Shown piece after piece: positions 492 through 42,747 of a DNA stretch of 64,000 bases. The stretch is from Nitrospira japonica (GTDB taxonomy: Bacteria > Nitrospirota > Thermodesulfovibrionia > Thermodesulfovibrionales > SM23-35). The stretch covers positions 33,785 through 97,784 of the forward strand of contig DYFC01000010.1 in the NCBI GenBank assembly GCA_020725385.1, read 5' to 3'. Each line of letters opens with the position of its first letter. Position 1 is the stretch's first letter. The notes beneath the pieces are model-generated. The model was not told where the DNA came from, did not search any database, and saw nothing but the letters and a program-made list of their open reading frames with translations. The position numbers were made by a program, and so were the translations under genes.

Positions 492-2534
<2,043 letters not shown>

Positions 2535-2554
2535 ATAAAGGAGGTGGATTTAAA

Positions 2555-2929: not shown

Positions 2930-2948
2930 TAAACATGGAGAAAATGCT

Positions 2949-4583: not shown

Positions 4584-4594
4584 AAATATATCCG

Positions 4595-4673
4595 GAGTCT
4601 GTGTATAAACACTTCGTTTGTCTTTTCCGGGTCAGTTAAGAATTTATAAGATAAACGGGATATACACAGACTC
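4595..4673. repeat. Long intergenic inverted repeat between convergent genes
   Basis: GAGTCTGTGTATA (4595-4607) pairs with TATACACAGACTC (4661-4673); inner arm CGTTTGTCTT/AAGATAAACG. Confidence 0.7.
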
Positions 4674-4676
4674 TAC

Positions 4677-5597
4677 CTATAGTCTGCCTTCTTCTTTTAG
4701 CCTGCTAACAATTTTCTGTATTTCTGGTAAGGCTGAGATTGCAGCTTTTTCTCCTTCAAGCACTGCTTCATGTCTTTTCGAGAAATCTGCTGCGCCAATA
4801 TAGCCGACTTTCGGCTTTATAACCACATCAGCTTTTGCAAGCTGTATTGAAGATAATTTTGAATACATTATATTTATTGACTGCATAATTGTTTCAATTG
4901 TTCCTTTAGGCATTGCTGATGAGGCATCACCTGAAATATCCACTGCAATTACAACATCAGCTCCCATTTTTCTTGCAGCATCTACTGCAACAGGACTGAC
5001 AACCCCGCCATCAACATACATCTTTCCTGAAATTACCGGAGGAATAAAAACACCTGGAATCGAGCAACTTGCTCTAACAGCAGTACCTGTATTTCCTGTT
5101 CCAAATATTACCTCATTACCCGTTTGAACATCTGTTGCCACTGCATAAAAAGGTATTCTTAATTTTTCCATGGGAGTATTTCTGAGCATAAAATTGATAT
5201 ATTTTTCGAGTTTCTCGCCCTTGATAAATCCATTATCAGGAATCCCGAGGTCAACTAAATCATCTTTTTGAAGCTCGAATGAAAATTTCTGGAGTTCGAA
5301 TGCATTGAATCCGTAAGCGTATAAAGAACCTACAAAACTTCCTGCGCTTGTTCCTACAACCATATGTATAGGAATCTTATTAGCTTCAAGAATTTTTAAG
5401 ACGCCAATGTGGGCAAATCCCTTTGAAGCTCCGGCTCCAAGAACTACTGCTATCTTTGCTGGTTTTACAGGTGGTTTAGTTTCAACAGGAGCACAGGAAA
5501 ACGAATTAAAAAAAATTAACAATAAAAGAGTAAAAAAGTTAATTCTTTTTATAAAATTTGTGGTACAGATATATTTTGTTTCCAGTAACATAAACAT
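4677..5597 (-). CDS. Patatin-like phospholipase (probable lipoprotein)
   Basis: GAGASKG oxyanion loop, GTSAG nucleophile, DGG motif; signal peptide ending FSC. Confidence 0.92.
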   Translation of the reverse strand: MFMLLETKYICTTNFIKRINFFTLLLLIFFNSFSCAPVETKPPVKPAKIAVVLGAGASKGFAHIGVLKILEANKIPIHMVVGTSAGSFVGSLYAYGFNAFELQKFSFELQKDDLVDLGIPDNGFIKGEKLEKYINFMLRNTPMEKLRIPFYAVATDVQTGNEVIFGTGNTGTAVRASCSIPGVFIPPVISGKMYVDGGVVSPVAVDAARKMGADVVIAVDISGDASSAMPKGTIETIMQSINIMYSKLSSIQLAKADVVIKPKVGYIGAADFSKRHEAVLEGEKAAISALPEIQKIVSRLKEEGRL

Positions 5598-5721
5598 TGC
5601 TTTAAAGCCCTCATCTCCGTAGAAACAGTCTAATAATTATATATACCAAAAACATTATAATTAAAGAAATTATGAAAATATTATAGTCCATGTTATCTTC
5701 GATTATCTTCAATTTAAAGGT

Positions 5722-6129
5722 TTATTTAATAACCCGGGACACTATTTTTACAATGAATGTTGCTGATTTAATGGCTTCTTTTGCATCTTTTGAGTCATAC
5801 TCATCTGTTGGAATAAAGTCCTCATCCCCATAAAATGCAAGTTCTCTTTCCTTGCGAAGTTTTTTAGAGATTTTTACAATCTTATCGAGTTCCCTGGAAA
5901 TAAATACAGGCAATAAAGATTTGTTTTCTTTTAATATCGGGCTTACATCATGCCATTTTGGTGGTTCAATTCCAACATATCTAAGTAAACCCTTCAAAGC
6001 AAGTTCGACGATCTCTTGAGCCTCTCTTATAACATCAGAATAAGCTTCTTCTTTAAAAAGAACATCAAGTATTTTTAATCTTTTAGTTGCCTTAATTAGA
6101 TAACTCTTTGCCAGATTATTTGTTGTCAT
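5722..6129 (-). CDS. HEPN-domain protein (toxin of an MNT-HEPN pair)
   Basis: AQEIVELALKG, PPKWHDV and RELAFYG motifs; overlaps the upstream MNT gene. Confidence 0.88.
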   Translation of the reverse strand: MTTNNLAKSYLIKATKRLKILDVLFKEEAYSDVIREAQEIVELALKGLLRYVGIEPPKWHDVSPILKENKSLLPVFISRELDKIVKISKKLRKERELAFYGDEDFIPTDEYDSKDAKEAIKSATFIVKIVSRVIK

Positions 6130-6590
6130 AGCTCGATTATTTCGCCTGGCTTTAAGTCAGGTTTTAAAATCCAATACCACCTTGTTCCTAAAAAAACTCG
6201 TTTTGATCCAAGTTTTTTAAACTTTATTTTTAAATTTTCAATTTTTCTTTTAAAAAAATCATTTTTATCATAAATAATGATTGAATCGTTAACCATATCA
6301 AAAAGAAGGGGGGTTCCATATTTAATTTCCTCAGGAGTTTTGATAATTGGTGATATATAATGAGGAACATTTTTAACTTTTTCTTCCACATTATCTATAA
6401 ACTCTTCGATTCTTTTCATCTTTCTTTTATGGAGTCCTTCAACTATTAATAGCAAATCCATATCTGATTCAGGCGTACATGTGCCTCTTGAAAAAGAACC
6501 AAAAATTATCAAACTAATAAGTCTCTCCTTGTAATAGTTAAGGACACATTCTTTTATTTCTTTAATATATTTTTTAAAGTCTTTTCTCAT
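6126..6590 (-). CDS. Minimal nucleotidyltransferase (MNT antitoxin)
   Basis: FGSFSRG...SDMDLL (GS-x10-DxD) motif. Confidence 0.88.
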   Translation of the reverse strand: MRKDFKKYIKEIKECVLNYYKERLISLIIFGSFSRGTCTPESDMDLLLIVEGLHKRKMKRIEEFIDNVEEKVKNVPHYISPIIKTPEEIKYGTPLLFDMVNDSIIIYDKNDFFKRKIENLKIKFKKLGSKRVFLGTRWYWILKPDLKPGEIIEL

Positions 6591-8915: not shown

Positions 8916-10540
8916 GCTGGAAGCTTAAAGAGAAAGCTGATTTATTGTTATCAAAAGAACAGGGCACAATATTCAAAGACCCGGGCGGGAAAATTAACAT
9001 CGCTCTTGTTTATCCAAATACATACCACATAGGAATGTCGAATCTCGGGTTTCAAGGAATATACGGTCTTTTAAATAACATAAACGATGTTGTCTGCGAG
9101 AGAGTTTTTTTACCCGATGAAAAAGATATTGAAGAATTCTTTAGGACTAATACAGAACTTTTTTCGCTCGAATCAAAAAGACCTCTTCATAGTTTTGATA
9201 TTATTGCTTTTTCAATCTCTTTTGAGAACGATTATCCAAATATAACAAAAATTTTTGCACTTTCAAGAACACCTTTTTTCAGTTCGAAAAGGACAGAAAA
9301 ACACCCTTTAATAATTCTGGGCGGTGTCTGCGCTTTTTTAAATCCAGAACCTGTTGCAGATTTTTTTGATATAGTTTTTATCGGAGAAGCGGATGAAATG
9401 CTTCCTGATTTTATAAATATATGCAGGGGGTCTGCCGGAAAAGCAGATATATTACATAAATCTCTTTCGATTGAAGGATGTTATATACCTTCTTTTTACA
9501 GAATATCTTATACATCTAATGGAACAATAAAAAAAAGAGAAGCTTTATATGGAGCACCTGATACAATCAAAAGGCGAATTTTCAATGATATTTCAAAATC
9601 GAAAATCTTTACATCTATAATTACATCTGAAACTGAATTTTCAGAAATGTCTCTAATTGAAGCCATGAGAGGTTGTCCATGGAATTGCAGGTTCTGCGCT
9701 GTTGGTAAGATATACAATCCGCCAAGAAGAAAAGATTTAACTGTTATTAAAGGAGAAATACAAGAGGCACTTAAAAAGACAGAAAGAGTTGGATTAATAG
9801 GACCTTCTCTTTCAGATTATCCTTTTATAAAAGAGACCCTTCAGATTGAAGGGGTTGATTTCTCGATCACATCATTGAGGGCAGGGACAAAGAGTACCGA
9901 ACTTATAAAATTTATGAAAGGCCATAAAAGTGTCTCAATAGCTCCTGAAGCAGGCACCGACAGATTGCGCAAGGTTATTAATAAGAAAATAACAGAAGAT
10001 GATATTCTCTTTACTTCTGAACAACTTTTTCTTGAAGGGATAGAAACTCTACGGCTTTATTTTATGATTGGACTTCCTACCGAGACAGATGAAGATATTA
10101 AAGGTATAGTGAACCTCATCAAAAAAATCAGAGCAATATCTTCCAGAGGTTTTATTACATTAAGTATAAGCACCTTTGTACCAAAGCCTTTTACTCCATT
10201 TCAGTGGCATCCTATGGAGAAAGAAACAGTTGTAAAAAACCGTCTGATGTATATAAAGAAGAGTCTTCTTCAAATTAAGGGTGTTAAAGTATTCCACGAT
10301 GTTCCTAAATATGCATATATGCAGGGCCTTTTCTCACAAGGCAACAGACATATTTCAAAAGTTTTAGCAGTAATGATAAAACAATCAGATTGGTTGAAAG
10401 CAGCTGAAGAGTCCGGCATTGATAAAGATTTCTTTATTTTCAGAAAAAAGGACTTCTCCGAAATTCTGCCATGGGATTTCATTGATAATAGAATCTCTAA
10501 AATCAAGTTATGGGAAGAATATCAGGAAGCCTTTTCCTGA
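8912..10540 (+). CDS. Radical SAM protein with B12-binding-like N-terminus (TIGR03960-like)
   Basis: YPNTYHIGMSNLG, RGCPWNCRFC, FVPKPFTPFQW, LPWDFID motifs. Confidence 0.85.
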   Translation: MSWKLKEKADLLLSKEQGTIFKDPGGKINIALVYPNTYHIGMSNLGFQGIYGLLNNINDVVCERVFLPDEKDIEEFFRTNTELFSLESKRPLHSFDIIAFSISFENDYPNITKIFALSRTPFFSSKRTEKHPLIILGGVCAFLNPEPVADFFDIVFIGEADEMLPDFINICRGSAGKADILHKSLSIEGCYIPSFYRISYTSNGTIKKREALYGAPDTIKRRIFNDISKSKIFTSIITSETEFSEMSLIEAMRGCPWNCRFCAVGKIYNPPRRKDLTVIKGEIQEALKKTERVGLIGPSLSDYPFIKETLQIEGVDFSITSLRAGTKSTELIKFMKGHKSVSIAPEAGTDRLRKVINKKITEDDILFTSEQLFLEGIETLRLYFMIGLPTETDEDIKGIVNLIKKIRAISSRGFITLSISTFVPKPFTPFQWHPMEKETVVKNRLMYIKKSLLQIKGVKVFHDVPKYAYMQGLFSQGNRHISKVLAVMIKQSDWLKAAEESGIDKDFFIFRKKDFSEILPWDFIDNRISKIKLWEEYQEAFS

Positions 10541-10642: not shown

Positions 10643-11947
10643 TTATTCTGTTCTCTCACTTTCGTTTTTAATTATTTCCAACTTAACTTTTGATATTCTT
10701 TTTCCAACCATCTCGGAAACTGTGAGCTTTTTGTTATCTATTTCAATAAAATCACCTACAACAGGTATTTTCTGAAATTCTAATAAAAGAAATCCGCTTA
10801 ATGTTTCATAATCAGGAGATTCAGGAAGTTCAATTGAGTAATCTTCTTTTAAATCCCTGATGCTTATTGAGGCATCGATTAAATAACTGTTTTCGCCTAA
10901 ATTAATAACAGGACTTTCAGTATCATATTCATCTCTAATTTCCCCGACTATCTCTTCCAGAAGGTCTTCCATTGTGACAAGCCCTGAAACCGAGCCATAT
11001 TCATCTATTACCAGTGCCATATGTATTCTTTTCTTCTGCATTTCTTTTAGAAGCTTGCTTATTTTCATTGTCTCAGGGATAAAGAAAGGCGGTTTTATTA
11101 GTTTTCTTATATCAGAAATGCCTTTTGGTAAAGCATTCAAGAAATCTTTTGCATAAAGTATTCCTCTAATATCGTTTATATCTCTGCCAATGACAGGATA
11201 ACGGGAGAATTGTTCTTCGCTTATTATTTGCTGTATCTCATTAATAGGCATATTTATTCCAATTGTAACCATCTGTGTTGCCGGTGACATAACCTCTTTT
11301 GCAGACATATCCGTAAACTCAAAAACACTGTGGATTAATTCCTGTTCCGTTGGTTCAAAAACACCCTGTTCTCCTCCCTCGATAATGAGCATTTTTACTT
11401 CTTCTTCTGATATGAAAGCTCTGTCAGAATATCTTTTTCCACCGAAAGGTTTAAGGAGAATGTTTGTGCTTGCTGTTAGAACTTTTACAAGTATTACAGC
11501 AATCTTTGAAAAAGCATCAACAACCGGAGCGGTTCTAAGTCCTATTCCTTCAGGATTATTCAGGGCAAGTGACTTTGGTACAAGCTCTCCAAAAATAAGG
11601 CTGAAATAAGTGATACTGACTGTAACAATTCCTATTGCTATTGCTTCGCTTGAAACAGAAATTAACGGCACATCTATACGTTTTATAGCAGGCTTTATTA
11701 TTTGAATAGCTGCTGCGCCACCGAGTGCCGCAGCAAGAACACCAACAAATGTAATTGCTATTTGTATTGTTGCGAGAAATTTATCAGGATTTTCTTTGAA
11801 TCTTCTCAGGATTTCAGCAGTTCTATTGCCCTCTTCAATAAGCTGCTTTATACGGCTTTTTCTTATTGAAACAACAGCTATTTCAGCAGCAGCAAAGAAA
11901 CCGTTTAAAAATATAAAAATAGCTATAAGTGCGATATCAGACCACAT
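10643..11947 (-). CDS. Hemolysin/CNNM-family (HlyC/CorC) membrane protein with CBS pair
   Basis: NGFFAAAEIA, FGELVPK and DEYG...TMEDLLEEIVGEI.DEYD motifs. Confidence 0.93.
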   Translation of the reverse strand: MWSDIALIAIFIFLNGFFAAAEIAVVSIRKSRIKQLIEEGNRTAEILRRFKENPDKFLATIQIAITFVGVLAAALGGAAAIQIIKPAIKRIDVPLISVSSEAIAIGIVTVSITYFSLIFGELVPKSLALNNPEGIGLRTAPVVDAFSKIAVILVKVLTASTNILLKPFGGKRYSDRAFISEEEVKMLIIEGGEQGVFEPTEQELIHSVFEFTDMSAKEVMSPATQMVTIGINMPINEIQQIISEEQFSRYPVIGRDINDIRGILYAKDFLNALPKGISDIRKLIKPPFFIPETMKISKLLKEMQKKRIHMALVIDEYGSVSGLVTMEDLLEEIVGEIRDEYDTESPVINLGENSYLIDASISIRDLKEDYSIELPESPDYETLSGFLLLEFQKIPVVGDFIEIDNKKLTVSEMVGKRISKVKLEIIKNESERTE

Positions 11948-12059: not shown

Positions 12060-13136
12060 TTATTTCATGCTATTAATAATCGCATCTGCAAATTGTGATG
12101 TTCCAACAGCGGTAGGATCATCGGGATAAGGCTTAAGATCATATGTTACATTTTTGCCTTCTGATATAACATCTGAAATAGCTTTTTCAAGTCTTTCAGC
12201 AGCGCTTATTTCTCCAATATGTCTCAGCATCATAACTCCTGACAATATCATAGCAAGGGGATTAACTTTGTTCAAGCCCTTATATTTTGGAGCGCTTCCA
12301 TGCACAGGCTCAAAAACAGCATATTCTTCTCCAAGATTTGCTCCGGGAGCAATGCCCAGACCACCTATAAGCCCTGCAGCGAGATCTGATACAATATCAC
12401 CATAAAGGTTTGGTAAAACAAGCACATCATAGAGTTCAGGCTTCTGCACAAGCTGCATACACATATTATCAACTATTCTGTCTTCAAATTCTATATCAGG
12501 ATAATTTAGAGCCACATTACGGGCTGTCTCAAGAAAAAGCCCGTCCGAATATTTCATAATATTTGCCTTGTGAACAGCCGTAACTTTTCTCCTTTTATTC
12601 TTTCTTGCATATTCAAAAGCAAATCGGACAATTCTCTCGGTACCGAATACTGAAATAGGCTTGATACTAATACCTGAATCACTTCTAATTGTTTTACCTG
12701 TTAGTTTTTTAATTAATTCGATCAACTGTTTTGAGCCTTCAGAATCTTTCTCAAATTCTATTCCAGCGTATAAATCTTCGGTATTTTCCCTGACTATTAC
12801 AATATCTACATTTTCATATCTTGTTCTTACACCTTTGAAAATCCTTGAAGGTCTTAGATTGCAGTACAGATCGAGCGTTTGTCTAAGTGTAACATTAACA
12901 CTTCTGAATCCTGTGCCAACAGGAGTTGTAACAGGACCTTTAAGCGCAACTTTATTTCTCTTAATTGAATCAATTACTCTTTGTGGCAATGGAGTTCCTT
13001 CTTTTTCATATACATCTATTCCTGCTTCCTGAATGTCCCAATTTATAGATACACCTGTAGCTTCTAAAACTTTTTTTGTAGCCTCTGTTATTTCAGGTCC
13101 GGTTCCATCTCCTGGAATTAAAGTGATATTGTACAT
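12060..13136 (-). CDS. icd: Isocitrate/isopropylmalate dehydrogenase family, probably isocitrate dehydrogenase
   Basis: [45 protein letters not shown]. Confidence 0.8.
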
Positions 13137-32807: not shown

Positions 32808-34286
32808 CTATCCTCCTTTCTTATCTGCTATGAGATAAGGTTGTGTTGTTTCTTCATAAATATCACTTAAAATATCTTTATCGCTTACATTCAATTCTGA
32901 ATTTATAGCCATCGCACATTCTACCTGATGTTTAATTATTTTGCAACTCTTCTCACATGGAATTTCTATCGAATCATTAGTCATTAAAGCATGATGCCAG
33001 CATCCTCCACCACAAAAATATCTTACCCAGCAATCCTTGCAAGGTTGACGATTGTCTACTGATAGATTAAGTATTTTCTCCTGAAGTCTTAAATCCAGAC
33101 CATTTTCAATATCACCCATCCGGTAATCTTCCATACCTACAAAACGATGACAGGGATAAAATCCACCATCTTGTGACAATGCAAAATAAGTTCTAAAAGC
33201 CCCGCAGAAATAAGGACTGCGGTCTCTTACAATCCTTGTCATTCTAATAAACCTTACTAAATTTGTATAATTAAAATATCTGTTTTGTCTAACGCTATCA
33301 ACTAAATAAAGGGCAACTGTTTCAATCTGTTTTTTTATTTCCTCAATGTCTTCATCTGTTACTGTTAATTCTCCTGCTCCGGCAACAGATGGTTCGGTAT
33401 GAACTGAACCAAACCCAAGCGAAAGAAGATGGTCTACAACAAGTGGTATATTAACTGTTCCTCTTGGGATTGTAACTCTTGCAGGAACTCTATCAGGTCT
33501 TGCAGAGATAAGACGCTTTATTCCAGAAACGACAAGATCATATGAGCCTTTACCGTTAGGTAATATTCTGTTCAAATTATGTATTTCTTTTGGTCCATCT
33601 ATTGATATTTGACAACCAATATTGTTTTTAACAACAAAATCTACTACTTCGTCATTAAGAAGGATTCCATTGGTAACAAGAGACATACTAACTTTCTTTT
33701 CCATCTCTTTTTCCTTCTCTCTAACATAAGAAACTATTTCTTTTATGAGTCTAAATTCAAGGAGAGGTTCTCCCCCAAAGAAAATCAGACTTAAATCTTT
33801 ATGCTTTCCTGAATTATTAAAAAGAAAATCAACACCCTTCTTTGCTATATCAATTGACATGCTTTTTCTTTTCGCACCATATAAATAAGGCTGTTGCTCC
33901 CATTCCTGCATTCCGTGCGAGCCATAGCAGTAACGGCATCTCATATTGCAGTCATGTGTAACCATAAGTTCAAGATGCCTTAATCCATAGCGCTTTTTTA
34001 GTGGCGGAAGATCCCGAAAATCATTATCATTATTATCAAATATAAACTTTTCTTTTTTTAAATATTTCAAAACTTCTTTTATTTCCCATTTTGGATATTT
34101 ATCCTTTAAGGCTCTTAAGGGGTCAGCTTTATTATTTTTTTCAAGAAGCTTTACTATTTCACAAACCAGGGGAGTTACTTCATAGAAAAGCATTGTTTTG
34201 ACATTGAATAGGATATTCTTACCTAAACGATTGAAAAGGTAGTGTTCAACAATCTTATATTCAGTCTGTTTATTAAAGATACCCAT
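32808..34286 (-). CDS. Radical SAM/SPASM peptide maturase (CteB/QhpD/PapB-like) with an RRE-like N-terminus
   Basis: CNMRCRYC, FFGGEPLL, TNG, SIDG; SPASM CGA...YPCHRF...CKDCWVRYFCGGGC...C; ~100-aa N-terminal extension. Confidence 0.9.
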   Translation of the reverse strand: MGIFNKQTEYKIVEHYLFNRLGKNILFNVKTMLFYEVTPLVCEIVKLLEKNNKADPLRALKDKYPKWEIKEVLKYLKKEKFIFDNNDNDFRDLPPLKKRYGLRHLELMVTHDCNMRCRYCYGSHGMQEWEQQPYLYGAKRKSMSIDIAKKGVDFLFNNSGKHKDLSLIFFGGEPLLEFRLIKEIVSYVREKEKEMEKKVSMSLVTNGILLNDEVVDFVVKNNIGCQISIDGPKEIHNLNRILPNGKGSYDLVVSGIKRLISARPDRVPARVTIPRGTVNIPLVVDHLLSLGFGSVHTEPSVAGAGELTVTDEDIEEIKKQIETVALYLVDSVRQNRYFNYTNLVRFIRMTRIVRDRSPYFCGAFRTYFALSQDGGFYPCHRFVGMEDYRMGDIENGLDLRLQEKILNLSVDNRQPCKDCWVRYFCGGGCWHHALMTNDSIEIPCEKSCKIIKHQVECAMAINSELNVSDKDILSDIYEETTQPYLIADKKGG

Positions 34287-34305
34287 ATTCTTCAGGTTGA
34301 AATAT

Positions 34306-34334
34306 AATATAGCTATTTGACCTAACAAATTCAA
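34306..34334 (-). promoter_or_regulatory. Putative sigma70 promoter of the rSAM operon
   Basis: TTGAAT-17 bp-TATATT, ending about 20 bp before ATG 34286. Confidence 0.5.
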
Positions 34335-34647
34335 TTAAATAAATCAAGCAGGGGCAATTCATGAATTGCCCCTGCACAATCCGTTTCAATACATATAATT
34401 CCATGAATATGGTTAGGCATAATTATATATTCATCCAGTTCAATATCCGGAAATTGAACTGGAATTTCTATCCAATATTGTTGGGCAATTATCCCATACT
34501 CATTTAACTTCATCCTACTATTAATCACGTCCCCAAATAAATAATCCTTATTTTTGTGCATATTGGAATGAAATACGCTCCTGATTGTGAATAATTATAA
34601 CCTTTCAGCCGTATTGATTTTCTTTTATGAATATCTGGATTATACAC
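34331..34647 (-). pseudogene. Frameshifted, truncated RAYT (Y1/HUH transposase) copy
   Basis: Homologous to 38945-39484; one A missing near 34555; ends just after the GAIHELPL palindrome. Confidence 0.85.
34348..34375. repeat. 28-bp perfect palindrome (REP-like)
   Basis: GCAGGGGCAATTCATGAATTGCCCCTGC. Confidence 0.9.
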
Positions 34648-34655
34648 TCCAATTC

Positions 34656-34826
34656 ACTATACCCCTTGCCTTCTCAAGACTGTTTTTGACCAATTCGCAC
34701 ACCGCCCAATAGACTTCATTCCTTTCATCTTCTGTCAGGCCAAAGATGTTGAATACAATATCGTCAAGGGCTTTACGGTCAGGAAGGGGTTTTGGTTTTT
34801 GTTTACGGATGGGTCAGGTTGGATTG
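34656..34826 (-). repeat. Gene 3'-end repeat, copy 1 (PKPLPDRKALDDIVFNIFGLTEDERNEVYWAVCELVKNSLEKARG)
   Basis: Manual translation; homologous to 35328, 38880 and 39493. Confidence 0.8.
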
Positions 34827-34855
34827 TTGGTGAGTGCTAGATGTATCAACATTGA

Positions 34856-35077
34856 CTATTTCAAAAAGTCTATGAATTCATCTACAGTCAGTTTAGATTG
34901 TTCAATAATGCTATACAGTGTTCCTTTTTTTAAATCCCGTGAATGAACAGGAATAGTTACTCGCAAAGAGCCTTTTTTAAAAATCTTATGACTGCCTTTT
35001 TGTCTATGCTCTACAAAACCTGCCCTTTGAAGCGCCTTTATAACATCGCTGCTTTTAAGCGCTGGCAATCTGCTCAT
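34856..35077 (-). CDS. hicA: HicA-family toxin
   Basis: RQKGSH...VTIPVH...GTLYSII. Confidence 0.92.
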   Translation of the reverse strand: MSRLPALKSSDVIKALQRAGFVEHRQKGSHKIFKKGSLRVTIPVHSRDLKKGTLYSIIEQSKLTVDEFIDFLK

Positions 35078-35297
35078 ATGGGGATTCCACTTCTACAATA
35101 AGATGGTCTTCTTCCGGAATTGGAAGGCCATCGGCTTGCAGACTCTCAAGGTAAAGCGCTATGGCCTCTTTAATATTCGCCAATGCCTCGTCATAAGTAT
35201 CACCTTCAGATATACAGCCTGGCAAAGAAGGAACCGTTGCGGTATAGCCGCCTTCTTCCTGTGGCTCAAATATAACCTTATAATATTTTTTTGCCAT
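35055..35297 (-). CDS. hicB: HicB-family antitoxin
   Basis: GGYTATVPSLPGCISEGDT..EAL.NIKEAI. Confidence 0.92.
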   Translation of the reverse strand: MAKKYYKVIFEPQEEGGYTATVPSLPGCISEGDTYDEALANIKEAIALYLESLQADGLPIPEEDHLIVEVESPYEQIASA

Positions 35298-35327
35298 ATA
35301 TCCTCCTGATTTTCAATTATACCAGAT

Positions 35328-35437
35328 TCATAAACTCTTAGCCTTATTCAATCTATTAGCGACTAATTCACACACCGACCAGTAAACCTCATTCCTCTCG
35401 GCTTCCGTCAAACCGAGGATGTCGAAGAAGATATCAT
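35328..35437 (-). repeat. Gene 3'-end repeat, copy 2 (DIFFDILGLTEAERNEVYWSVCELVANRLNKAKSL*)
   Basis: Manual translation of intergenic DNA. Confidence 0.8.
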
Positions 35438-35559
35438 AAAAAAATGCATTTGAGAGTCAAAATTGGTATTTCAGCAAGAACACTATTGTGGAAAGTAGAA
35501 AGAATTATATCGCTATTGTCAATAATTTTTTGTGATCATAGCGTAGCTTACTTAAGGTC

Positions 35560-36012
35560 TCAAGATTTGAACATTAATAATTCATCAAGCAATTCGTTAG
35601 AAACATAAAAACCCTTATCTTTAAGTTCTTGAGCCTTTTTAAAAGCGCTCTCTATAAGTCCAAGTTTTTCGGCTTTTAACAAAACACCAATACTACCACT
35701 AATAGACAATCCTAAATCTTCTGCAACCTTTCGAGCTTTTAAATCATCAATTAATGCTCTAAAATTAGTCTCATAGGCAAGGGCTATAACCTCAGATTCA
35801 CCTCTTCCTAAGTTTAAATTACGCATTAAGACATTGATTAATCTGCTTTCAACCTTTCGCACTAATAAGCAATCAATATTGATTTCGCCAAATTCTTTGA
35901 CCACAGCATCAGGCAAAATAATCTCCTTATAGATTTTACAGAGAATTTGTAAGAGATCAATTCGTTCGAAGGCTATTAAAACAGAGGCATCAACAATGAC
36001 TGCTTCAGGCAT
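35560..36012 (-). CDS. PIN-domain DUF3368-family toxin
   Basis: IVDASVLI, LGRGESEVIALA, IDDLKAR, GSIGVL. Confidence 0.88.
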   Translation of the reverse strand: MPEAVIVDASVLIAFERIDLLQILCKIYKEIILPDAVVKEFGEINIDCLLVRKVESRLINVLMRNLNLGRGESEVIALAYETNFRALIDDLKARKVAEDLGLSISGSIGVLLKAEKLGLIESAFKKAQELKDKGFYVSNELLDELLMFKS

Positions 36013-36226
36013 TCGATAGTTCTTTCTCAAGATTCAGTTTTTGAAACTTTATTGGAGCTATCCCCTTATGCAGCAATATCTCAACAAATGCCTTTTCAGA
36101 ATACCCGGCTATCTCAGATGCTTTACCAAGAGATATTAAATCTTCGTCAAGAAGCTTTATGGCAAGCAATAGTTTTAATTCTTCTTCCGGTATATTTAGC
36201 TCAGGTATAGTTAGTGATTTGCCCAT
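36005..36226 (-). CDS. UPF0175-family antitoxin
   Basis: LAIKL...ISLGKASEIAG; overlaps the PIN gene. Confidence 0.85.
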   Translation of the reverse strand: MGKSLTIPELNIPEEELKLLLAIKLLDEDLISLGKASEIAGYSEKAFVEILLHKGIAPIKFQKLNLEKELSNA

Positions 36227-36376
36227 TTATACCCTTCTTTCTTTAAAAGAATTATAACATAGCCCTTCGAAAGAAGACATCATGCAGTAACCCGTGTATC
36301 CCATCTGCGCATCTTCTCAAGCTCCTTCAATATCTTGGCCTCGGAGATGCCTTCTTTCCGGAATATAACTAAATCT

Positions 36377-37377
36377 TCACGTATTACTTTTTGGCAAAAC
36401 ATTTTTAGCAATTTCTAAAATCTTAATATTCCCTTCGCTTCCATCTTTTGACGAATCTATGTAACCAGTAGAAGTAGTGCTGAATACAGCTTTTGCAGCT
36501 TCGAGAACAACAGTATCCTTAATTTGTACATCCTTTGCAGCAGAAGAGAAAGCCTGAAGGGTTTGAATGCTTAATGCTCTATGCTGATAAACTGCCGATT
36601 GATGCATCAACGCTCTGTAGATTTTACCGCACCAAATAGTAGCGGCAGGATACCAAGAACAACTATTTTTGTTGTAATTTTCTGCCAAATTTGACCTTGG
36701 TCTAAACCTGCCTCTGTAAAATACCAAAGGAAAGTAGCTGCAACTACTGTAATAACCCCAAGAAATGCTGTGACTTTAAGCCATATTTGGGCTGTCTCTT
36801 TCAATACAGAAGCTTCTTTTTTAAAATCCTCTGTAAATACAGCAGCACCGGCTGATGCCGATGCTTCACGGGCTTTTATTATAATATCATCTATTTCCTT
36901 CCCCTTTTGATCTATCTTGGTCTTAGCTTCTTCAACCAATATCTCAGCTTCCTTTACAGATGTTGTCAGTGATTCAACGTTGCGGGCTACATCGCCTTTC
37001 TGATATGCAAGGAAAGGAATCCAAGGAGATGCAGCAGTATAAAGCGAATCTGCCCGATTTTGAATCTGGGAAATAAATTGATCTCTTTGCTGAGCCGGCG
37101 AGCCAGATTCTATTGAGAATTTATTAATGGTATCAAAAAGTCCGTTGATTTGCTGTATCTCATTTGTAATGGAACTAATGGCATTTATGGTAAGCAACTC
37201 AACTGGCAGCACTTTTAGATAATTAACTATTGAATATATACGGTCAATATCACTACGAACATCCTCAAGTGTAATAGTTCCCCACTCTGGCCTGGCAATC
37301 AGTTTTTCTTTATCAAATTGCAAAAATTGTTCAATTTGTTTTTTCAACCCATTAAGCTGCTGTGAATTTCTTGACAT
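36377..37377 (-). pseudogene. Frameshifted coiled-coil membrane protein of unknown function
   Basis: ORFs 36607-37377 and 36377-36727 join near 36645 inside a TM segment (VLGIL / AATIWCGKIYRA). Confidence 0.6.
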
Positions 37378-37409
37378 ATTTTTACCCCTCCTCGTTTATA
37401 AAACACAAA

Positions 37410-38495
37410 TTAACTCTTCTCCCATTCAAACCTCTTTTTTAGATCATTACAGTGACTATGAGGAATTTTATTGTCATGTTGGAGTCTGCCAACGACTATA
37501 CCAGCGGCGATACCGAGTTCAGAGGCGAATTTTTGTATAGCTGCCTTACTGTATCTTCCATTCCGTATGAATTGACTGTATTGTTTCGGCGGAATTAGAA
37601 AATCAGAGGCAAACCTGTCAGCCTTGTCTTCCTTGGAGTTATTAGCATCACACTCAATAAATACCTCTTTCTTTCCATGCATGAGTATATGACCTGCTTC
37701 ATGGAAGAAACTGAACCATAATTGATCGTCGCTTTTATAGCGAAGACTCAATTGAATGACAGCCTTGTTAGGATTTGTCCACCATGTCGCACCCGATGCC
37801 CTGATTCTAGGAATCTCAGGCACAAAGGCAACGGCAACACCTGCATCAGCACATAAACGAATAACTTCCTGTTGAAAGTGCTCAGGCGGTTTAACAGTAA
37901 GCTGACGGACATTTAAAAGCGCATTCTTGAACTTCGATGCATCAAAAGGCTTGCAACTGATATTCCGAGCTGTCAGTTCACCCATCCTAAGCCATGATGC
38001 AACAGCATAAGGGTCGTTTTGGAAAACTTTTGATGTTCGATAGGAAACCCGGGCGCCCATCCATCTTGTTTCCCATTGTTCAGGAGAAGCGACGCCAAAG
38101 AAATTTAAGACAGCTTGAAGCTGCTGAACCATGCCTGAATGTTTCTTAACCCAACCCATCTTGATAAGCACATTCAAAGGCATTTTCTTCAGCCAGTTTA
38201 TCTGCCGCTGCAACCTCTTTTGCTCATTTAGTCTTGCCAGTGTCTCCTGATAATTACGCTCCAGATTATTCCAGAAGCTTGCAGGAATACCGAGGACCCT
38301 TTCCAGTTGTAACGCAGTTTCCGGTGTTATAGCAGCCTTTCCCTTAATGATTTCATTAATTGTCTTCTTCGGTCTGCCTGTGCGTTCTGCAAGCTCTGCC
38401 TGAGACATTCCAATTGCTTCCATGGTTTCAAGAAGCGTTTCCCCGGGGGGCACAGCGTAATCAGGCATAAACTGATTTTTTATATTTTTACTCAT
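37410..38495 (-). CDS. higA: HigA-type HTH antitoxin fused to an ImmA/IrrE metallopeptidase domain
   Basis: PPGETL..HTH..ITPETALQLE..FWNNLE; FFHEAGH. Confidence 0.88.
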   Translation of the reverse strand: MSKNIKNQFMPDYAVPPGETLLETMEAIGMSQAELAERTGRPKKTINEIIKGKAAITPETALQLERVLGIPASFWNNLERNYQETLARLNEQKRLQRQINWLKKMPLNVLIKMGWVKKHSGMVQQLQAVLNFFGVASPEQWETRWMGARVSYRTSKVFQNDPYAVASWLRMGELTARNISCKPFDASKFKNALLNVRQLTVKPPEHFQQEVIRLCADAGVAVAFVPEIPRIRASGATWWTNPNKAVIQLSLRYKSDDQLWFSFFHEAGHILMHGKKEVFIECDANNSKEDKADRFASDFLIPPKQYSQFIRNGRYSKAAIQKFASELGIAAGIVVGRLQHDNKIPHSHCNDLKKRFEWEKS

Positions 38496-38826
38496 GTGTG
38501 TCCTCCACACCAATAATTTTAATTATCGTCACTTTAGTCCAATCAAGCCCTCCATCCAGCTTTTTGGGTATCGGGTTGTTTGCGGGCTCAAAAATAAGTC
38601 GATAAGGATAGTCAAGATCTACAGACAGTTGTCCTTTTCTATTTCCTTTCAATTCATGGCATCGAGCCTTGGGAAGATTGCGCAACTCTTCAAGCGCATT
38701 AGCAGCAGCAAATTCGACTAACCTTCTTTTTAAAAGCTTAGCTCTTTTAGTGCCGAATCTTTTAATCATAAGATTCTCATTGTTGCACTTTTTCTCAAGT
38801 TTGGTTGTCTTAAATAGAATAACCAC
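38488..38826 (-). CDS. higB: HigB/RelE-family toxin
   Basis: RCHELKGNRKGQLSVDL..PYRLIF; upstream of higA. Confidence 0.85.
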   Translation of the reverse strand: MVILFKTTKLEKKCNNENLMIKRFGTKRAKLLKRRLVEFAAANALEELRNLPKARCHELKGNRKGQLSVDLDYPYRLIFEPANNPIPKKLDGGLDWTKVTIIKIIGVEDTHE

Positions 38827-38844
38827 AGATTAACTTTTTGTCAA
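38816..38844 (-). promoter_or_regulatory. Sigma70-like promoter overlapping the higB start codon
   Basis: TTGACA-17 bp-TATTCT, with the GTG start inside the spacer; imperfect palindrome ATTAACCCTTAGGGTAAAT at 38852-38870. Confidence 0.55.
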
Positions 38845-38879
38845 GATAATTATTAACCCTTAGGGTAAATGATTTTTCT

Positions 38880-38945
38880 TTACACACTCTTTATCTCCTC
38901 AAGACCGTTCTTGACTAATTCACATACTGCCCAGTAAACTTCATT
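38880..38945 (-). repeat. Gene 3'-end repeat, copy 3 (NEVYWAVCELVKNGLEEIKSV*)
   Basis: Starts at the RAYT stop codon. Confidence 0.8.
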
Positions 38946-39484
38946 TAACTTTTATGAAGACCATAATATTCGTCCAATTCCCATTTCAAAGGATTGGTAA
39001 GAATATATTTCCTGATCGTGTTTAATTCTTGTTCATTTCGTATAATGTGTTCATAATAATTACGTTGCCAGACAGGATTGCTGCGTGTATTACGTATTTG
39101 GTTGATTTGTTTTGCGGATTGCATTTTAAACCACCCAATAATTTTTGGTAACAACATCTTTCTACGTTGTCTTTTATATTCATGTAGGGGCAATTCATGA
39201 ATTGCCCCTACAAAATTCGTTTCAATACATATAATTCCATGAACGTGGTTTGGCATCACAATAAATTCATCAATGGCCGTATTCGGAAAATGTCGTGGTA
39301 TTTTGTTCCAATATTGTTGTACAACGGTCCCCATAATATTTAATTGCATCTCCCCGTTGGTTATATCTCCAAACAAACATTCCCTGTCCTTTGTGCATAT
39401 CGTCACAAAATACGCCCCTGCCTGTGAATAATCATAACCTTTCAGGCGGATTGATCTTCTTTTATGAATGTCTGGATTATACAC
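38945..39484 (-). mobile_element. REP-associated tyrosine transposase (RAYT, Y1/HUH)
   Basis: RRSIRLKGYDYS..GAYFVTICT, MPNHVHG, WQRNYYEHIIR, YI..NP. Confidence 0.9.
39183..39212. repeat. 30-bp perfect GTAG-type palindrome inside the RAYT gene
   Basis: TGTAGGGGCAATTCATGAATTGCCCCTACA, encoding VGAIHELPL. Confidence 0.9.
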
Positions 39485-39492
39485 TCCACCTT

Positions 39493-39659
39493 CTACACAC
39501 TCCTTGCCTTTTCAAGACTGTTCTTGACCGATTCGCAGACTGCCCAATAGATGCAAACAGCTTGTCTTTTGGATATCCTAAGGAAATAAATAGCTTAAAA
39601 ATTTTTTCGGGAGAGGTTAATTCAGGAACAAAATCCTGTGCAATATTTTTTATTTGCAT
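39493..39659 (-). pseudogene. Gene stub: N-terminal fragment joined out of frame to 3'-end repeat copy 4 (YWAVCESVKNSLEKARSV*)
   Basis: MQIKNIAQDFVPELTSPEKIFKLFISLGYPKDKLF abuts the repeat at about 39552. Confidence 0.6.
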
Positions 39660-39768
39660 ATATATTTGTACCAGTAATAATACCCAAAATTCAAGTTCTC
39701 GAAGTTATTCCAAATTCAGAAAATATATGTTTAACATATTACAGAAGTATTGGGGGGTTTAAAAAAAT

Positions 39769-42747
39769 CTAAAGAACAGTTTCAAATTCTAATATCTGAT
39801 AGCCGGAGAGAAATTTTTTTCGTTTTGCTTTTATTTTTATTGTATCGCCTTCTTTTTTATCAAACATGAATATTTTTATATCATCTACATTTTCTATCTT
39901 CCATTCATTCAGTGAAAAAAGTATATCGCCTTTTCTCAATCCGGAGTTTTTTACTCTGCTACCGGGAATAATATCTTCTATTCGGACGCCTGAATCCGTT
40001 TCTTTTAAAATCAATCCGAGTTTTAATGTCGAAGGTGCGGGCAGTTGCTCCGTGAAAAGAATATAGTCTGCAATTTTTTTGTCTGTGTTTTCAGAGACAG
40101 GTATTAGAGTTACATAATCTTTACCGTTTATTCTTTTCAATCTGTTTGGTATTCCAGAGCCATACATTATATGACCAACCCCTGCAAGTATTACCATCTG
40201 ATAGTCCGGATTCTTTGCCATAAATTCAGCTGCGGTATGAGCCATTGTTTCATCCCATAAAATTTGTGACTGGACAAAATATTCAAAATTCCTGCTTTCA
40301 TGATTTCTGTGCGATGAAAAAACCTCTTTTAAAATTGATTTATAGTTTTCATCTGACATATCCATATTTTCAGGTATTTCCCTTTTTTCAATAAAGTCGA
40401 GGCCATCAATTCCTTCACGGGAAACTTTCTTGATTATTTCGGTCCATTGATTAAGGGCTATTACAGGAATTTTATTTGCCTTAGCATATTCCATTATTTC
40501 CCTGTAAAGATTGTAATCAAATTGCCACCTTTTATAATACTCGGAGGATTTAAGGAATTGTTTTTCACTTATAGTTCCTGAAAGATAGTCATTCAATGCC
40601 TTCTGAAATGGCCTCTGAAACATTTCCATTCCTATTGCTATTTTTCTTCCTCTTTCATGAAGCCCCATAATTATTTTTAGTTGTGTTTTATGGTCTTCGT
40701 AATTTTCATGTCTTTCTCCTACATATATCACGGGTTTAAATTTTATTTGCTCGATAATTTCATCTATATTCAAAGTTTTTTCAGGTTTTATACCTTTTAT
40801 CGAAATATCAAGCGGAAACCTTATTCCACGGGATGTTTCAACAATATCTTTCTGAATATTTTTACCATCTCCAAATTTGATAGAAGAATATTTCCCGTAA
40901 TGAAATATTTTTCTTGAAACAGAATCTGCTTCCTGTTTTGAATCTGCATAAGCTATCGCAATAACTTTTTCAGAATTCAATGGATTTTTTCTTATTTCAA
41001 GAGAAAAACCTTTGTCAAATTTTTTTATACTCCCAAATAATCTTTTTATTATTCTTCCTTCATCTGTAAATACCAGTACCGATGATGTTCTTAAATCTTC
41101 GTCATTAACATCTATTTCATCTTTTACAGAAAAATTTTGTTCTTTAAATATTTCTGTTAGAGTTTCGTATTTTTCTTTTCCCTCATCGGGTAAAACAATT
41201 AGCTTTTTATTATCTCCTATAAGTCTTGAGATTAAAGGGGGAAATTCATCCTCAGAAAATTTTCTCAAGATATCATAGTCCGGATCAATAACAAGTTCGG
41301 ATGGATTTCCTTCAACCTCTATATTGAAATTTTCTTTTGCTTTTTCGATATGCAACTTTTTTCTAAATGAGCCGTTTGCAGTTATAATTTCAACTGGCAC
41401 ATCAATTATATAAGGTTCTTCCTTTTGTATAATATTAAAGGTAACAGTTTGCTTACCATCGAGTATTTTTACAGATAAATTATTTATTTCAAACAAAGGC
41501 AAGCCTTTTCTATCAAGCCACTGAGAAAAAAACCCATCAAGATTTTTCCCGGAAGATTTTTCAAATGAGGATTTAATGTCATCCCATGAAACATTCTGAA
41601 AAGATTTTTCATTAATGATAACCTTTAGTGTATTAATAAACAAATCTTCACCAACAAGATTTTTAAGCATATGAAACACCATCGATGCCTTGCCATAGCC
41701 AATAGCTTTTGTCGCGAAATCTGTTCTTGATGTAAATTCCCTTAGGGTAATTTCTTTTTTAGGATCTACATAACTTAGAAAATCGGATATTATATTCTTT
41801 CTGTATTGCCACCCTTTTCCTTTTTGCTCTTCATATAAATGATCCGAAAGATAGGCTGTTAATCCTTCGGCCCAGTTTCCTTTCTTATAATCAATATAGA
41901 CATAATTTCCGAACCATTGATGGAGTATTTCATGTCCAAGAGCAGTCTCTGCAATAAATGGAAGACGTATGACATCCTGGCCGAGCAATGTAAATGTAGG
42001 CATTGAATATCCTGTGGATTGAAAATTCTCTACAACAGAAAAACGTTTGTATGGATATTCACCGAATAAATTTTTATATAACCGAATAAATTTTTTAGAA
42101 TACTCCATATATGTATTTGCAAGCTTTCCGTCTTCAGGGAAAAAATAAGCATAAAGCTGGATATTGTCTATTCTTTCTTTAAACTCTATATATTTGGCAG
42201 CCACAAATGTTATTTCATTAAGCGGATGTAAAAAGTAAAAGGAATATTCTTTGACGTTACCGTTACTTTTTACTTCTATTTCTTCAGCTTCTGATATAGC
42301 ACTGAAATCCACCGGTACTTTAGCCTTTAAATTAAAATAAGCCATACCATCGAAAACAGGGTACCACATACGTGTAAGGGAAATGCCTTTTCCGCCAATA
42401 ATGTTACTGCCAACAACTCCTGAATTTTGTAAATTTGAATTTTCCTGATAATCCGGGAAATAAGCATCGTAAACAATTTCGATAGAACTTTTACCCTTCA
42501 GGGTTATTGCTTTGAGATTTATATAATCAGGAATGTTTTCTCCATTGGTTTTTACTGAAATTATTTTGAGGTTACCAAAAGAAATAAGCAGGTCTTTTTC
42601 ATCCTGCGATGTGATAATAGCTTTACCACTGATAGTGGATTTATCAAGATCGAATGCTACAGACAGATTATATACAGGAAGTTTTTCTTCAGCAAAGCAG
42701 ATTGAAGAAGATAAAGCAAAAATCAGAGACAAAATAAAATATAACAC
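39769..42747 (-). CDS. Exported M1-type metallopeptidase fused to ChaN-like and PDZ domains
   Basis: HEILHQW...W.EG gluzincin motif; YVGERH...GMEMF...WDETMA...LAGVGH ChaN-like region; C-terminal PDZ (GLRKGD). Confidence 0.8.
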   Translation of the reverse strand: MLYFILSLIFALSSSICFAEEKLPVYNLSVAFDLDKSTISGKAIITSQDEKDLLISFGNLKIISVKTNGENIPDYINLKAITLKGKSSIEIVYDAYFPDYQENSNLQNSGVVGSNIIGGKGISLTRMWYPVFDGMAYFNLKAKVPVDFSAISEAEEIEVKSNGNVKEYSFYFLHPLNEITFVAAKYIEFKERIDNIQLYAYFFPEDGKLANTYMEYSKKFIRLYKNLFGEYPYKRFSVVENFQSTGYSMPTFTLLGQDVIRLPFIAETALGHEILHQWFGNYVYIDYKKGNWAEGLTAYLSDHLYEEQKGKGWQYRKNIISDFLSYVDPKKEITLREFTSRTDFATKAIGYGKASMVFHMLKNLVGEDLFINTLKVIINEKSFQNVSWDDIKSSFEKSSGKNLDGFFSQWLDRKGLPLFEINNLSVKILDGKQTVTFNIIQKEEPYIIDVPVEIITANGSFRKKLHIEKAKENFNIEVEGNPSELVIDPDYDILRKFSEDEFPPLISRLIGDNKKLIVLPDEGKEKYETLTEIFKEQNFSVKDEIDVNDEDLRTSSVLVFTDEGRIIKRLFGSIKKFDKGFSLEIRKNPLNSEKVIAIAYADSKQEADSVSRKIFHYGKYSSIKFGDGKNIQKDIVETSRGIRFPLDISIKGIKPEKTLNIDEIIEQIKFKPVIYVGERHENYEDHKTQLKIIMGLHERGRKIAIGMEMFQRPFQKALNDYLSGTISEKQFLKSSEYYKRWQFDYNLYREIMEYAKANKIPVIALNQWTEIIKKVSREGIDGLDFIEKREIPENMDMSDENYKSILKEVFSSHRNHESRNFEYFVQSQILWDETMAHTAAEFMAKNPDYQMVILAGVGHIMYGSGIPNRLKRINGKDYVTLIPVSENTDKKIADYILFTEQLPAPSTLKLGLILKETDSGVRIEDIIPGSRVKNSGLRKGDILFSLNEWKIENVDDIKIFMFDKKEGDTIKIKAKRKKFLSGYQILEFETVL

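Follow-up and report, generated by a model that had tools for sequence, protein, structure and literature searches.

How do four diverged copies of a single gene end come to stand in one row, interspersed with different small genes and with no integrase nearby? This question is raised by positions 34331 to 39659 of a 64,000-nt stretch of Nitrospira japonica DNA (contig DYFC01000010.1), which is referred to in its full length as the window and lies on contig C2 of the source assembly (G000; 2,463,613 nt in 71 contigs). On the minus strand of this segment, co-oriented repeats, here also called tails, punctuate a series of toxin-antitoxin (TA) genes and a RAYT-like transposase gene. Our analysis traces the tails to the 3' end of a putative methylase gene; the window holds a fossil array of TA cargo plus RAYT, the relic of a hot spot within a defence operon. 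Throughout the text, the letters G, L, P, C and X label genomes, loci, proteins, contigs and public sequencing runs, respectively.

Gene ends of a putative methylase

A repeat search of the window yielded a family (D2) of four co-oriented 53-nt copies at 34661-34713, 35334-35386, 38886-38938 and 39499-39551, whose identity to the reference copy is 68-89%. With an nhmmer profile of 25 full-length tails from other genomes, matches are obtained at the same four places, all on the minus strand. R1 (34658-34846; E 9e-48) is full-length with 63 codons; R2 (35328-35435, or 35331-35435 without the stop; E 5e-25) comprises the last 35 codons and TGA, R3 (38880-38945, or 38883-38945 without the stop; E 1.4e-9) the last 21 codons and TAA, and R4 (39493-39552, or 39496-39552 without the stop; E 2.5e-12) the last 19 codons and TAG. 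With this profile no further tail was detected in the window at E<=10, including the long slot between R3 and R2. Likewise, tblastn searches of the whole assembly with R1 and R2 gave matches at these four places only; for the R1 query the E-values are 1e-28, 5e-12, 2e-6 and 4e-6, the next best match having an E-value of 0.14. R1 begins 10 nt past the HicA stop and R3 right at the RAYT stop. R4 with the RAYT gene and R1 with a RAYT remnant form one larger, diverged duplication (34344-34713 versus 39180-39551; families D1-D3).

The translations are variants of one peptide: R1 reads IHLALTNNPT and, after an internal TGA, PIRKQKPKPLPDRKALDDIVFNIFGLTEDERNEVYWAVCELVKNSLEKARGI, and the sequences DIFFDILGLTEAERNEVYWSVCELVANRLNKAKSL (R2), NEVYWAVCELVKNGLEEIKSV (R3) and IYWAVCESVKNSLEKARSV (R4) each run up to a stop codon. 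An earlier note on this DNA, made from the letters alone, had described four co-oriented copies of such a peptide and had placed them correctly on the minus strand. Two of its details need correction: R1 has the internal TGA and has lost the canonical stop that R2, R3 and R4 keep, and R4 is out of frame with the 60-aa stub ORF that was reported next to it.

To which gene do these ends belong? When the 47-aa R1 peptide was compared with longer proteins, 269 of 297 candidates matched at E<=0.01. The full-length matches to this query (77-87% identity, about 1,150-1,294 aa) carry the precomputed Pfam domains PF02384 (N6_Mtase), PF07669 (Eco57I), PF22837 and PF20473 (MmeI_Mtase), and some are named 'Eco57I restriction-modification methylase domain-containing protein' by their sources. 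In these proteins the R1 peptide is the extreme C-terminus. At the level of sequence, the comparison shows that the tails correspond to the conserved last 63 or fewer codons of a predicted Eco57I-like (type IIG-like) N6-adenine methylase of about 1,240 aa, a kinship that the earlier note had proposed.

At loci with an intact parent gene, the next conserved gene forms a two-gene operon with it; its product measures about 1,045 aa and combines a PLD (HKD) domain with an SNF2 helicase. PADLOC classifies the L031 parent as REase_MTase_IIG (E 1e-51) and its partner as 'HKD+Snf2' / DrmD-like (E 4e-60); the separate HKD-SNF2 partner is a candidate for the nuclease of the system. In the archaeal locus L054 the helicase begins 10 nt past the methylase stop. 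Cargo genes stand between methylase and helicase in L016, L018, L022, L023, L025, L026, L030, L031, L036 and L056, and they include HigBA, UPF0175-PIN, SocA/Panacea, DUF3800, a RelA/SpoT-like protein and GmrSD. The short junction from the methylase stop to the helicase start is a hot spot that fills with TA modules and small defence genes.

Did the window once contain the methylase itself? The stub ORF (39477-39659) starts with 34 codons (39558-39659, minus strand; tblastn) that align with the N-terminal 150 aa of the methylase P0059 (53% identity over 34 aa, E 1.6e-6) and, by tblastx, with the N-terminus of the L031 parent (67.5% over 40 aa). The N-terminal homology stops at 39558 and the tail homology of R4 begins at 39552 in another frame, i.e. 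both are joined within six bases. The stub therefore represents the N-terminal part of the parent, which once sat at this locus and has lost about 1,190 codons by internal deletion. The methylase of the window, reduced to 34 N-terminal codons fused out of frame to the last 19, is dead, no Eco57I-type methylase domain is encoded at this locus any more, and the helicase is gone from it. The earlier note missed that its stub is the N-terminus of the parent and that the array sits at an operon junction. Deletions of the whole gene that spare the tail are common: besides the 34 + 19 codons of the window, about 57 + about 80 are left in L020, 0 + 45-47 in L052 and L044, and about 100 + about 130 in P0018, and in 28 of the 45 loci described below the first tail is not attached to an ORF of at least 1,000 aa.

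Other Eco57I genes of the assembly are located on C36, C65 and C31, all without a tail. On C36 (about 750-6220) a helicase gene precedes a methylase gene; their products are about 25% identical to the L031 proteins, and the Eco57I domain lies on a 1,187-aa ORF. This pair may be the working system of this general type in the genome. In the methylase P0009, a DUF559 gene lies in frame between PLPxGEG repeats.

At the 3' end of the tails the choice of codons is uneven. Arg -3 is encoded by AGG in 40 of 41 cases and Ser -2 by AGT or AGC in 54 of 56, while Arg -8 and Ser -16 are mixed. The last four tail codons (in the window, for example, 39496-39507) spell AAGGAG, and many cargo genes begin 0-15 nt past the tail stop; the methylase 3' end probably doubles as a Shine-Dalgarno site for the next gene. 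Such a ribosome-binding site, together with addictive antitoxin cargo downstream, would protect the 3' end of each tail from deletion. Two further roles of the tail were rejected. A promoter of the form TTGAGA-N17-TATAAT was seen by eye in L057 only, and the 'FDI' codons, which resemble TTGACA, show no conservation in their nucleotides. Translation of the tail as a small protein is not a general rule: tail 3 of L011 and tail 2 of L019 have a coupled start, and others contain stops or frameshifts, among them R1 of the window and all three tails of L045. Furthermore, 24 full tails have no conserved attC-like fold according to RNAalifold (11 weak pairs; consensus energy -1.68 kcal/mol, covariation contributing only -0.22 kcal/mol).

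Tails and arrays in other genomes

The window is not alone in this arrangement. Among 41 relatives, 13 possess the tail, with clustered copies in G013 (3), G032 (3) and G022 (2); in G013 an intact 1,251-aa parent is followed by two further tails. In an even sample of the phylum the tail is present in 19 out of 401 genomes, and 4 of these have clustered arrays. The set of 45 loci used in the following consists of 43 loci from a scan of species-representative genomes, the window and L011; it includes the near-duplicate pairs L016/L043 and L052/L053, and many of its loci are cut by contig ends. The species-representative loci belong to the Nitrospirota, Desulfobacterota, Planctomycetota (Brocadia, complete genome), Nitrospinota, Ignavibacteriota, Bacteroidota, Cloacimonadota, Caldisericia and one metagenome-assembled genome of the Promethearchaeota. 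Two or more co-oriented tails occur in 18 of the 45 loci, so that repeated 3' ends with variable cargo, which the earlier note expected in relatives, do exist. In L011, L021, L022 and L026 the first tail is part of an ORF of 1,246-1,318 aa and is followed by co-oriented tails that are truncated at the 5' side.

The 18 arrays contain 25 internal tails. ORFs between tails were scanned in 16 arrays (all except L053, a near-copy of L052, and the window), which yielded 36 ORFs; 34 of these share the strand of the tails, and a Pfam family could be assigned to 24. Most families are of the TA type (ParE, MazF, DUF4258/DUF2283, DUF433/PIN, HicBA, HigBA), and the others include RAYT, AAA_15/21 ATPase, DUF559, GmrSD_N and an 8xMP membrane protein. 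The cargo genes are separate from the tails and have their own starts; every tail reaches the stop codon of the parent or its remnant.

ORFs of 249-385 aa without a Pfam family at the thresholds used, located between or after tails, are found in L026 (5697-6851), L052 (965-1864), L034 (3974-4720) and L044 (10189-11247). These unassigned ORFs are candidates for new defence or addiction genes. After the G022 array, in L013 (6579-10782), a Dsr1-like gene is split into a SIR2 ORF of 296 aa and an ORF of 1,108 aa with TIR and the Dsr1 C-terminus (PADLOC Dsr1, E 3e-150). In L039 (9887-10174, equal to L013 6292-6582) a ParE/RelE-like toxin gene breaks off at '...NIENINPA' and continues in frame with a tail at '(I)NPARP...', apparently after a deletion by way of INPA, a microhomology common to both; in L011, where the toxin is intact, it reads '...NIENINPAPLRGKF'.

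Are the tails of an array copies of each other? For 21 pairs of tails within arrays, the pooled proportions of synonymous (pS) and nonsynonymous differences (pN) are 0.685 and 0.142, a ratio of 0.21. Single pairs range from 0.39 to 0.93 in pS and from 0.04 to 0.35 in pN/pS, and the six pairs of the window have pN/pS values of 0.23-0.35. A high pS combined with a low pN implies that the divergence arose while each tail belonged to a working gene. The second tail of L011, for instance, shares 83% of its nucleotides with the tail of the locus's own gene, and 33 of 34 amino acids are the same. The nearest relative of a tail is usually found in another genome: R2, with the ending 'VANRLNKAKSL', is 87% identical in nucleotides to tail 1 of L022 and at most 68% identical to R3 and R4 (R1 was left out of this comparison for lack of a stop). 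Judged by these substitution patterns, the tails within an array are shown to derive from different methylase alleles, not from local duplication, as the earlier note had surmised from the many synonymous differences. With each tail from a different, deeply diverged allele, an array would record several separate acquisitions, and the tails can be regarded as a fossil record of successive methylase alleles.

Origin of the arrays

By which route, then, do ends of different alleles and their cargo arrive at one place? Comparisons between loci point to exchanges near the stop codon. Over 2,583 nt, the window segment from R3 through HigBA and the membrane gene shares 91.6% of its nucleotides with the DNA that comes directly behind an intact parent in L031. 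This alignment begins in the last 63 nt of the intact parent's tail, and these 63-nt tails are just 78% alike. L016 and L051 show the opposite pattern, with 92% identity between tails and 73% between cargo. The histories of tail and cargo are separate and meet near the stop codon. L018 and L056 are about 90% identical in the methylase core and again from 11946/13700 onwards, at the broken helicase; they differ in the TRD, the tail and the cargo between. This pattern fits a block swap between conserved flanks.

Natural variants of the window array itself were found when public runs were compared, as assembled contigs (Logan), with the window. Run X5, which belongs to another study, matches the window at 98-100% identity in 33800-35429 and in 38879-40200 and has no coverage of the interval. 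On one side its contigs part from the window at 35429/35430, six bases within the 5' edge of R2 (35435), and on the other at 38879, a single base past the R3 stop. The metagenome contig L059 (1,462 nt; the sole return of one metagenome scan) is 100% identical to 35271-35429 and then runs on into the 3' end of a Dsr1-like defence gene (160-1462), which fills the slot upstream of R2. X5 and L059 have R3 with RAYT (98%) and R2 with HicB (100%), with other DNA between: one slot of this array is naturally polymorphic in its cargo, as observed in another sample. A second variant pair is L044 and L057, whose flanks are about 90% identical and which differ by one unit of a full tail and three genes, from just past a HicA stop to the helicase ATG. 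L044 also has a hairpin-rich insert of about 75 nt (9490-9560; AATTAGGAATTACGAATTAGGAATCC...) between the tail stop and the HicB promoter region, which is absent from L057.

The best explanation in our view, with a probability of roughly one half, is a series of recombination events that use the conserved tail as their anchor, similar to what is seen in the Rhs and CdiA orphan arrays. According to this model, the tail would be the one stretch of DNA likeness common to otherwise divergent systems. Incoming DNA consisting of a tail and its cargo would pair on the tail, and the earlier tail with its cargo would be left downstream. Once two tails are present, any donor tail could pair with any recipient tail, and arrays could be joined, swapped and shortened by homologous recombination, which we infer to be the joining mechanism. 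The exact repeat edges and the limit at -63 codons could alternatively point to a new recombination mechanism.

What is more challenging for tail-anchored recombination is a series of findings that weigh against it. The claim of the earlier note that cargo stacks by homology is plausible, but ordinary crossing-over within repeats does not predict breakpoints at their edges, as found in X5 and L059, where R2 keeps 100% identity as far as its 5' edge; in diverged repeats it should give mosaic tails. Internal tails never extend beyond about 63 codons, a limit that rare random founder junctions do not predict either. Seven full-length internal tails begin about 0-25 nt from the stops of four cargo genes (HicA three times, ParE, MazF and DUF2283 precede such tails). 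Between alleles, tails agree in just 63-92% of their positions, and near-invariance extends over about 24 nt at most, at the 3' end, which would make them poor substrates. By eye, no gradient of degradation with distance from the gene was seen in the arrays, which leaves strict proximal displacement unsupported. The first tail lacks an ORF of at least 1,000 aa in 14 of the 18 arrays versus 14 of the 27 single-tail loci (4 of the latter 14 are cut by a contig end), and this bias of arrays toward dead genes is not predicted by the model. Finally, no circular or excised form was detected among the assembled contigs of the public runs. A joint of 34437 to 39393 in run X1 was considered as such a form and rejected as unreliable: one side has only 29 letters, and it is out of register with the RAYT duplication. 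Runs X4 and X7 leave stretches uncovered, which carries no weight either for or against such forms.

An alternative is a true cassette system, in which the tail of about 190 nt, or its 3' block of about 24 nt, would be the attachment site of a recombinase encoded elsewhere. Cargo and tail would then move as discrete units, cut out and put in again in the manner of integron cassettes or Xer-dependent dif modules, with host XerC/D or an unknown enzyme as the agent. Such a system would account for the edge-exact breakpoints in both variant pairs (window versus X5/L059, L044 versus L057), for a unit bounded at about -63 codons and at the stop codon, with seven full tails abutting four cargo genes, and for the decoupling of cargo and tail histories at the stop. 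In addition, the 3' block CTTGAGAAGGCAAGGAGTGTGTGA is nearly invariant, lone terminal fragments of 29-40 nt survive in L024, L028, L029, L034, L055 and L058, and a recombinase is found in no cassette. Yet the tails have no conserved secondary structure, most of the tail is free at synonymous sites, so that conservation is at the protein level, and the invariant 3' block is already accounted for by amino-acid constraint and the Shine-Dalgarno site. Internal tails other than the seven full-length ones (counted by eye) have scattered 5' edges and lengths of 39-141 nt, and cargo is also stacked without a tail between in L016 and L031. Pfam reveals no recombinase family among the 17 window proteins scanned around the array, and the only two PF00589 genes of the assembly (295-299 aa) are located on C33 and C15 rather than on the contig of the window, serine recombinases not having been searched for; the earlier note's statement that the window contains no integrase holds in this respect. 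We regard a cassette system as unlikely, and the same applies to the more specific model that units of cargo and a 190-nt tail are inserted between methylase and helicase by an enzyme acting in trans (host Xer, RAYT-type HUH or other). If it were true, TA and defence genes would be traded across bacterial phyla and even with archaea, and the array would be a working gene-capture device, not a by-product of recombination.

Exact edges could also be created by RAYT-type single-strand cleavage at the feet of hairpins, if hairpin elements (REP/RAYT, DUF559-type) inserted into the tail or beside it and each brought along or left behind a truncated copy of it. A RAYT gene directly follows the first tail in the window, L022 and L023, that is in 3 of 18 arrays, whereas the other 15 have no RAYT between tails. 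In L023 (Brocadia) REP-like palindromes (about 10200-10250 and about 10840-10880) flank the RAYT gene, one of them abutting the truncated tail 2, and the RAYT remnant of the window is cut off just past its REP palindrome (34351-34372). In L011, L029, L034 and L059, truncated tails directly adjoin a DUF559-linked hairpin, CCCCTCT(4-5 nt)AGAGGGG. L029 and L059 have in common the junction of AGAGGGGAAT with TT(T/C)TT(T/C)GACATCCTCGG, of which L011 has a close variant, and the window and L059 diverge exactly at the hairpin-tail junction. Hairpin elements take part in the arrays as well; as the cause of the arrays they are improbable. The assembly has just 4 REP copies and one RAYT gene, no hairpin adjoins the seven full-length internal tails, and at most the truncated classes would be explained, but not the stacking of tails from different alleles. 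We give even less credence to the proposal that several complete methylase-helicase systems stood in tandem and that each was cut down to its tail and addictive TA cargo, with no tail-directed recombination involved. The frequent tail-keeping deletions and unattached first tails described above and the enrichment of arrays among decayed loci agree with it, and L044 and L057 have a common internal helicase deletion. However, no methylase or helicase family occurs among the 36 ORFs between the tails of 16 arrays or among those of the window, internal tails stay within about 63 codons whereas first-tail relics comprise 19 to about 130, and the cargo genes follow each other from stop to start, leaving no DNA to spare. 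A local duplication in tandem, in which the 3' end of the gene was copied and then diverged in place, has hardly any probability left. The copies are co-oriented and closely spaced, and tails 1 and 3 of L045 have the same 12-nt deletion and frameshift, so that some copying or conversion within arrays does occur. Decay of non-coding copies in place, however, should give a pN/pS ratio of about 1 instead of near-saturated pS with a low ratio, and the nearest relatives of tails would not usually be found in other genomes; for the window, the pS/pN comparison of within-array tails refutes local duplication.

Known systems and the cargo of the window

Tail-anchored recombination has its closest known analogues in orphan arrays: Rhs 'C-terminal displacement', CdiA-CT/CdiI orphans and the effector-immunity arrays of type VI secretion (T6SS) in Vibrio cholerae. 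For Rhs/CdiA/T6SS orphan arrays, homology-facilitated illegitimate recombination and later homologous transfer have been proposed according to PMC5361080, which cites Jackson 2009, Poole 2011 and Koskiniemi 2014; PMC3967940 also concerns arrays of this kind. In both cases a main gene (here in relatives) stands ahead of copies of its conserved part that have the same orientation and are shortened at the 5' side, the cargo is variable and includes a protective gene, and the modules are acquired horizontally from other alleles with no integrase. The methylase arrays differ in that what is repeated is the last part of the gene through to its stop codon, and in that the cargo consists of separate genes (TA, RAYT, small defence genes) and not of a toxin domain fused in frame. 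Moreover, the host gene is the methylase of a restriction-like operon, with the array between two operon genes. Polymorphic toxin loci are known to contain stacks of gene-end relics with protective cargo; the present arrays bear this signature within a restriction-like defence operon.

The arrays also resemble integrons: small, co-oriented cassettes, often TA, alternate with a recurring repeat, no mobility gene is found inside, and many first genes begin right after a repeat and could be read from upstream. In this architecture the earlier note's term 'integron-like' is apt, but it stands as an analogy only, because no IntI is present on the contig and the repeat is protein-coding and has no attC-like fold. 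In addition, the repeats have a common 3' end and varied 5' lengths, unlike those of integrons. SCC elements at rlmH, tRNA-targeting islands, tycheposons and Xer-dependent dif modules form tandem units that use an identified site-specific recombinase and short, near-identical core repeats. Like SCC elements, tRNA islands and dif modules, the arrays have copies of a gene 3' end that border stacked cargo units, some without a recombinase of their own; unlike them, their repeats are 63-92% alike and no recombinase is linked.

A third comparison concerns defence genes within restriction loci. As in EcoprrI, with prrC embedded in a Type IC locus (PMC12707154), and in BREX-type operons, defence or abortive-infection genes lie within a methylase or restriction operon, and cargo is exchanged between conserved flanks, as the pair L018 and L056 illustrates. 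Methylase 3' ends that are repeated and punctuate the cargo distinguish the present loci; the available portion of that article does not mention them. The methylase and HKD-SNF2 pair resembles the N6-methylase and HKD-Swi2/Snf2 helicase of the Type-2 BREX-related (BR) system, which also comprises a DUF499 ATPase and DUF3780, according to PMC12839542. No DUF3780 match was found among the ORFs scanned. A limited full-text literature search, not covering supplements, returned no paper on repeated methylase 3' ends with TA cassettes. The recurrence of this stacking in many unrelated microbes points to a recombination hot spot where defence cargo accumulates with no integrase nearby. The arrays offer a concrete means of tracing how, with no integrase involved, TA and small defence genes come together in defence loci, and the tail can be used as a search handle to harvest cargo.

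The cargo genes of the window, all on the minus strand, follow the order given in the earlier note, as the ORF list and Pfam (HicA, HicB, UPF0175, DUF3368/PIN, HigB, HTH+M78 HigA, Y1_Tnp RAYT) agree. Downstream of R3 lie a HigB-like toxin gene (38488-38826; Pfam HigB-like_toxin, E 6e-8, 33.5 bits) and a gene for a HigA-type antitoxin of 367 aa fused to an M78 (IrrE-like) domain (37410-38513; Pfam HTH_3 and Peptidase_M78; NCBIfam antidote_HigA with 57.8 bits versus a cut-off of 47.7). They are followed by a gene of unknown family with hydrophobic C-terminal segments (36371-37377; tblastx to L031). This 'membrane gene' of the earlier note is present, but relative to the single 334-aa ORF of L031 it is frameshifted near 36644-36646; tblastx aligns its two frames with L031 11653-12423 (94% identity) and 12430-12702 (96%). 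Its 256-aa membrane-type ORF has no match above the curated cut-offs in Pfam and none in PADLOC or NCBIfam, and the 334-aa homologue, scanned in PADLOC only, has no match there. The slot ends with a UPF0175 antitoxin-like gene (36005-36226; Pfam UPF0175, E 1.3e-12, 47.7 bits) and a PIN-like / DUF3368 toxin-like gene (35560-36030; Pfam DUF3368, E 1.4e-9, 38 bits), the latter being 88% identical in nucleotides to cargo in L050. Between R2 and R1 are located the genes of a HicB antitoxin (35055-35297; Pfam HicB_lk_antitox, E 3.8e-14, 53 bits) and a HicA toxin (34856-35077; Pfam HicA_toxin, E 1.8e-19, 70 bits). HicA, HicB, HigB, UPF0175 and DUF3368 all score above the Pfam cut-offs, and by family assignment the cargo includes adjacent small genes for predicted toxins and antitoxins of known type II families. 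Immediately upstream of the stub, a gene at 39769-42747 has a product of 992 aa in which Peptidase_M1, a ChaN/Tiki-type haem-binding domain and a PDZ domain are fused; the gene has no synteny with the flanks of related methylase loci.

Between R4 and R3 lies the gene of a RAYT-like Y1 (HUH) transposase of 179 aa (38945-39484, minus strand). It is the sole Y1_Tnp match in the assembly (30.9 bits at a cut-off of 23) and reaches 72.2 bits with NCBIfam REP_Tyr_transpos, under the cut-off of 80. The RAYT remnant (34331-34647, minus strand) is frameshifted, and its repeats D1 and D3 are 74-87% identical to the intact gene. The DUF559-linked hairpins are located at about 1075-1215 in L011, 10193-10236 in L029, about 5260-5300 in L034 and about 160-190 in L059, directly at the 5' edge of truncated tails; DUF559 is represented by Vsr-like endonuclease genes or their remnants. 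Tails abutting such a hairpin start with 'FFDILG', and intact genes have 'VFDILG'. A REP-like palindrome, GGGGCAATTCATGAATTGCCCC, is placed within the RAYT coding sequence (39187-39208, without strand; inverted repeat I1). It has 4 exact copies in the assembly, where repeats may be under-assembled; loose contig ends are numerous at 39178-39215 in four public runs, and many metagenome contigs match the palindrome alone. It encodes the peptide GAIHELPL, which is also found twice within the full-length methylase P0059.

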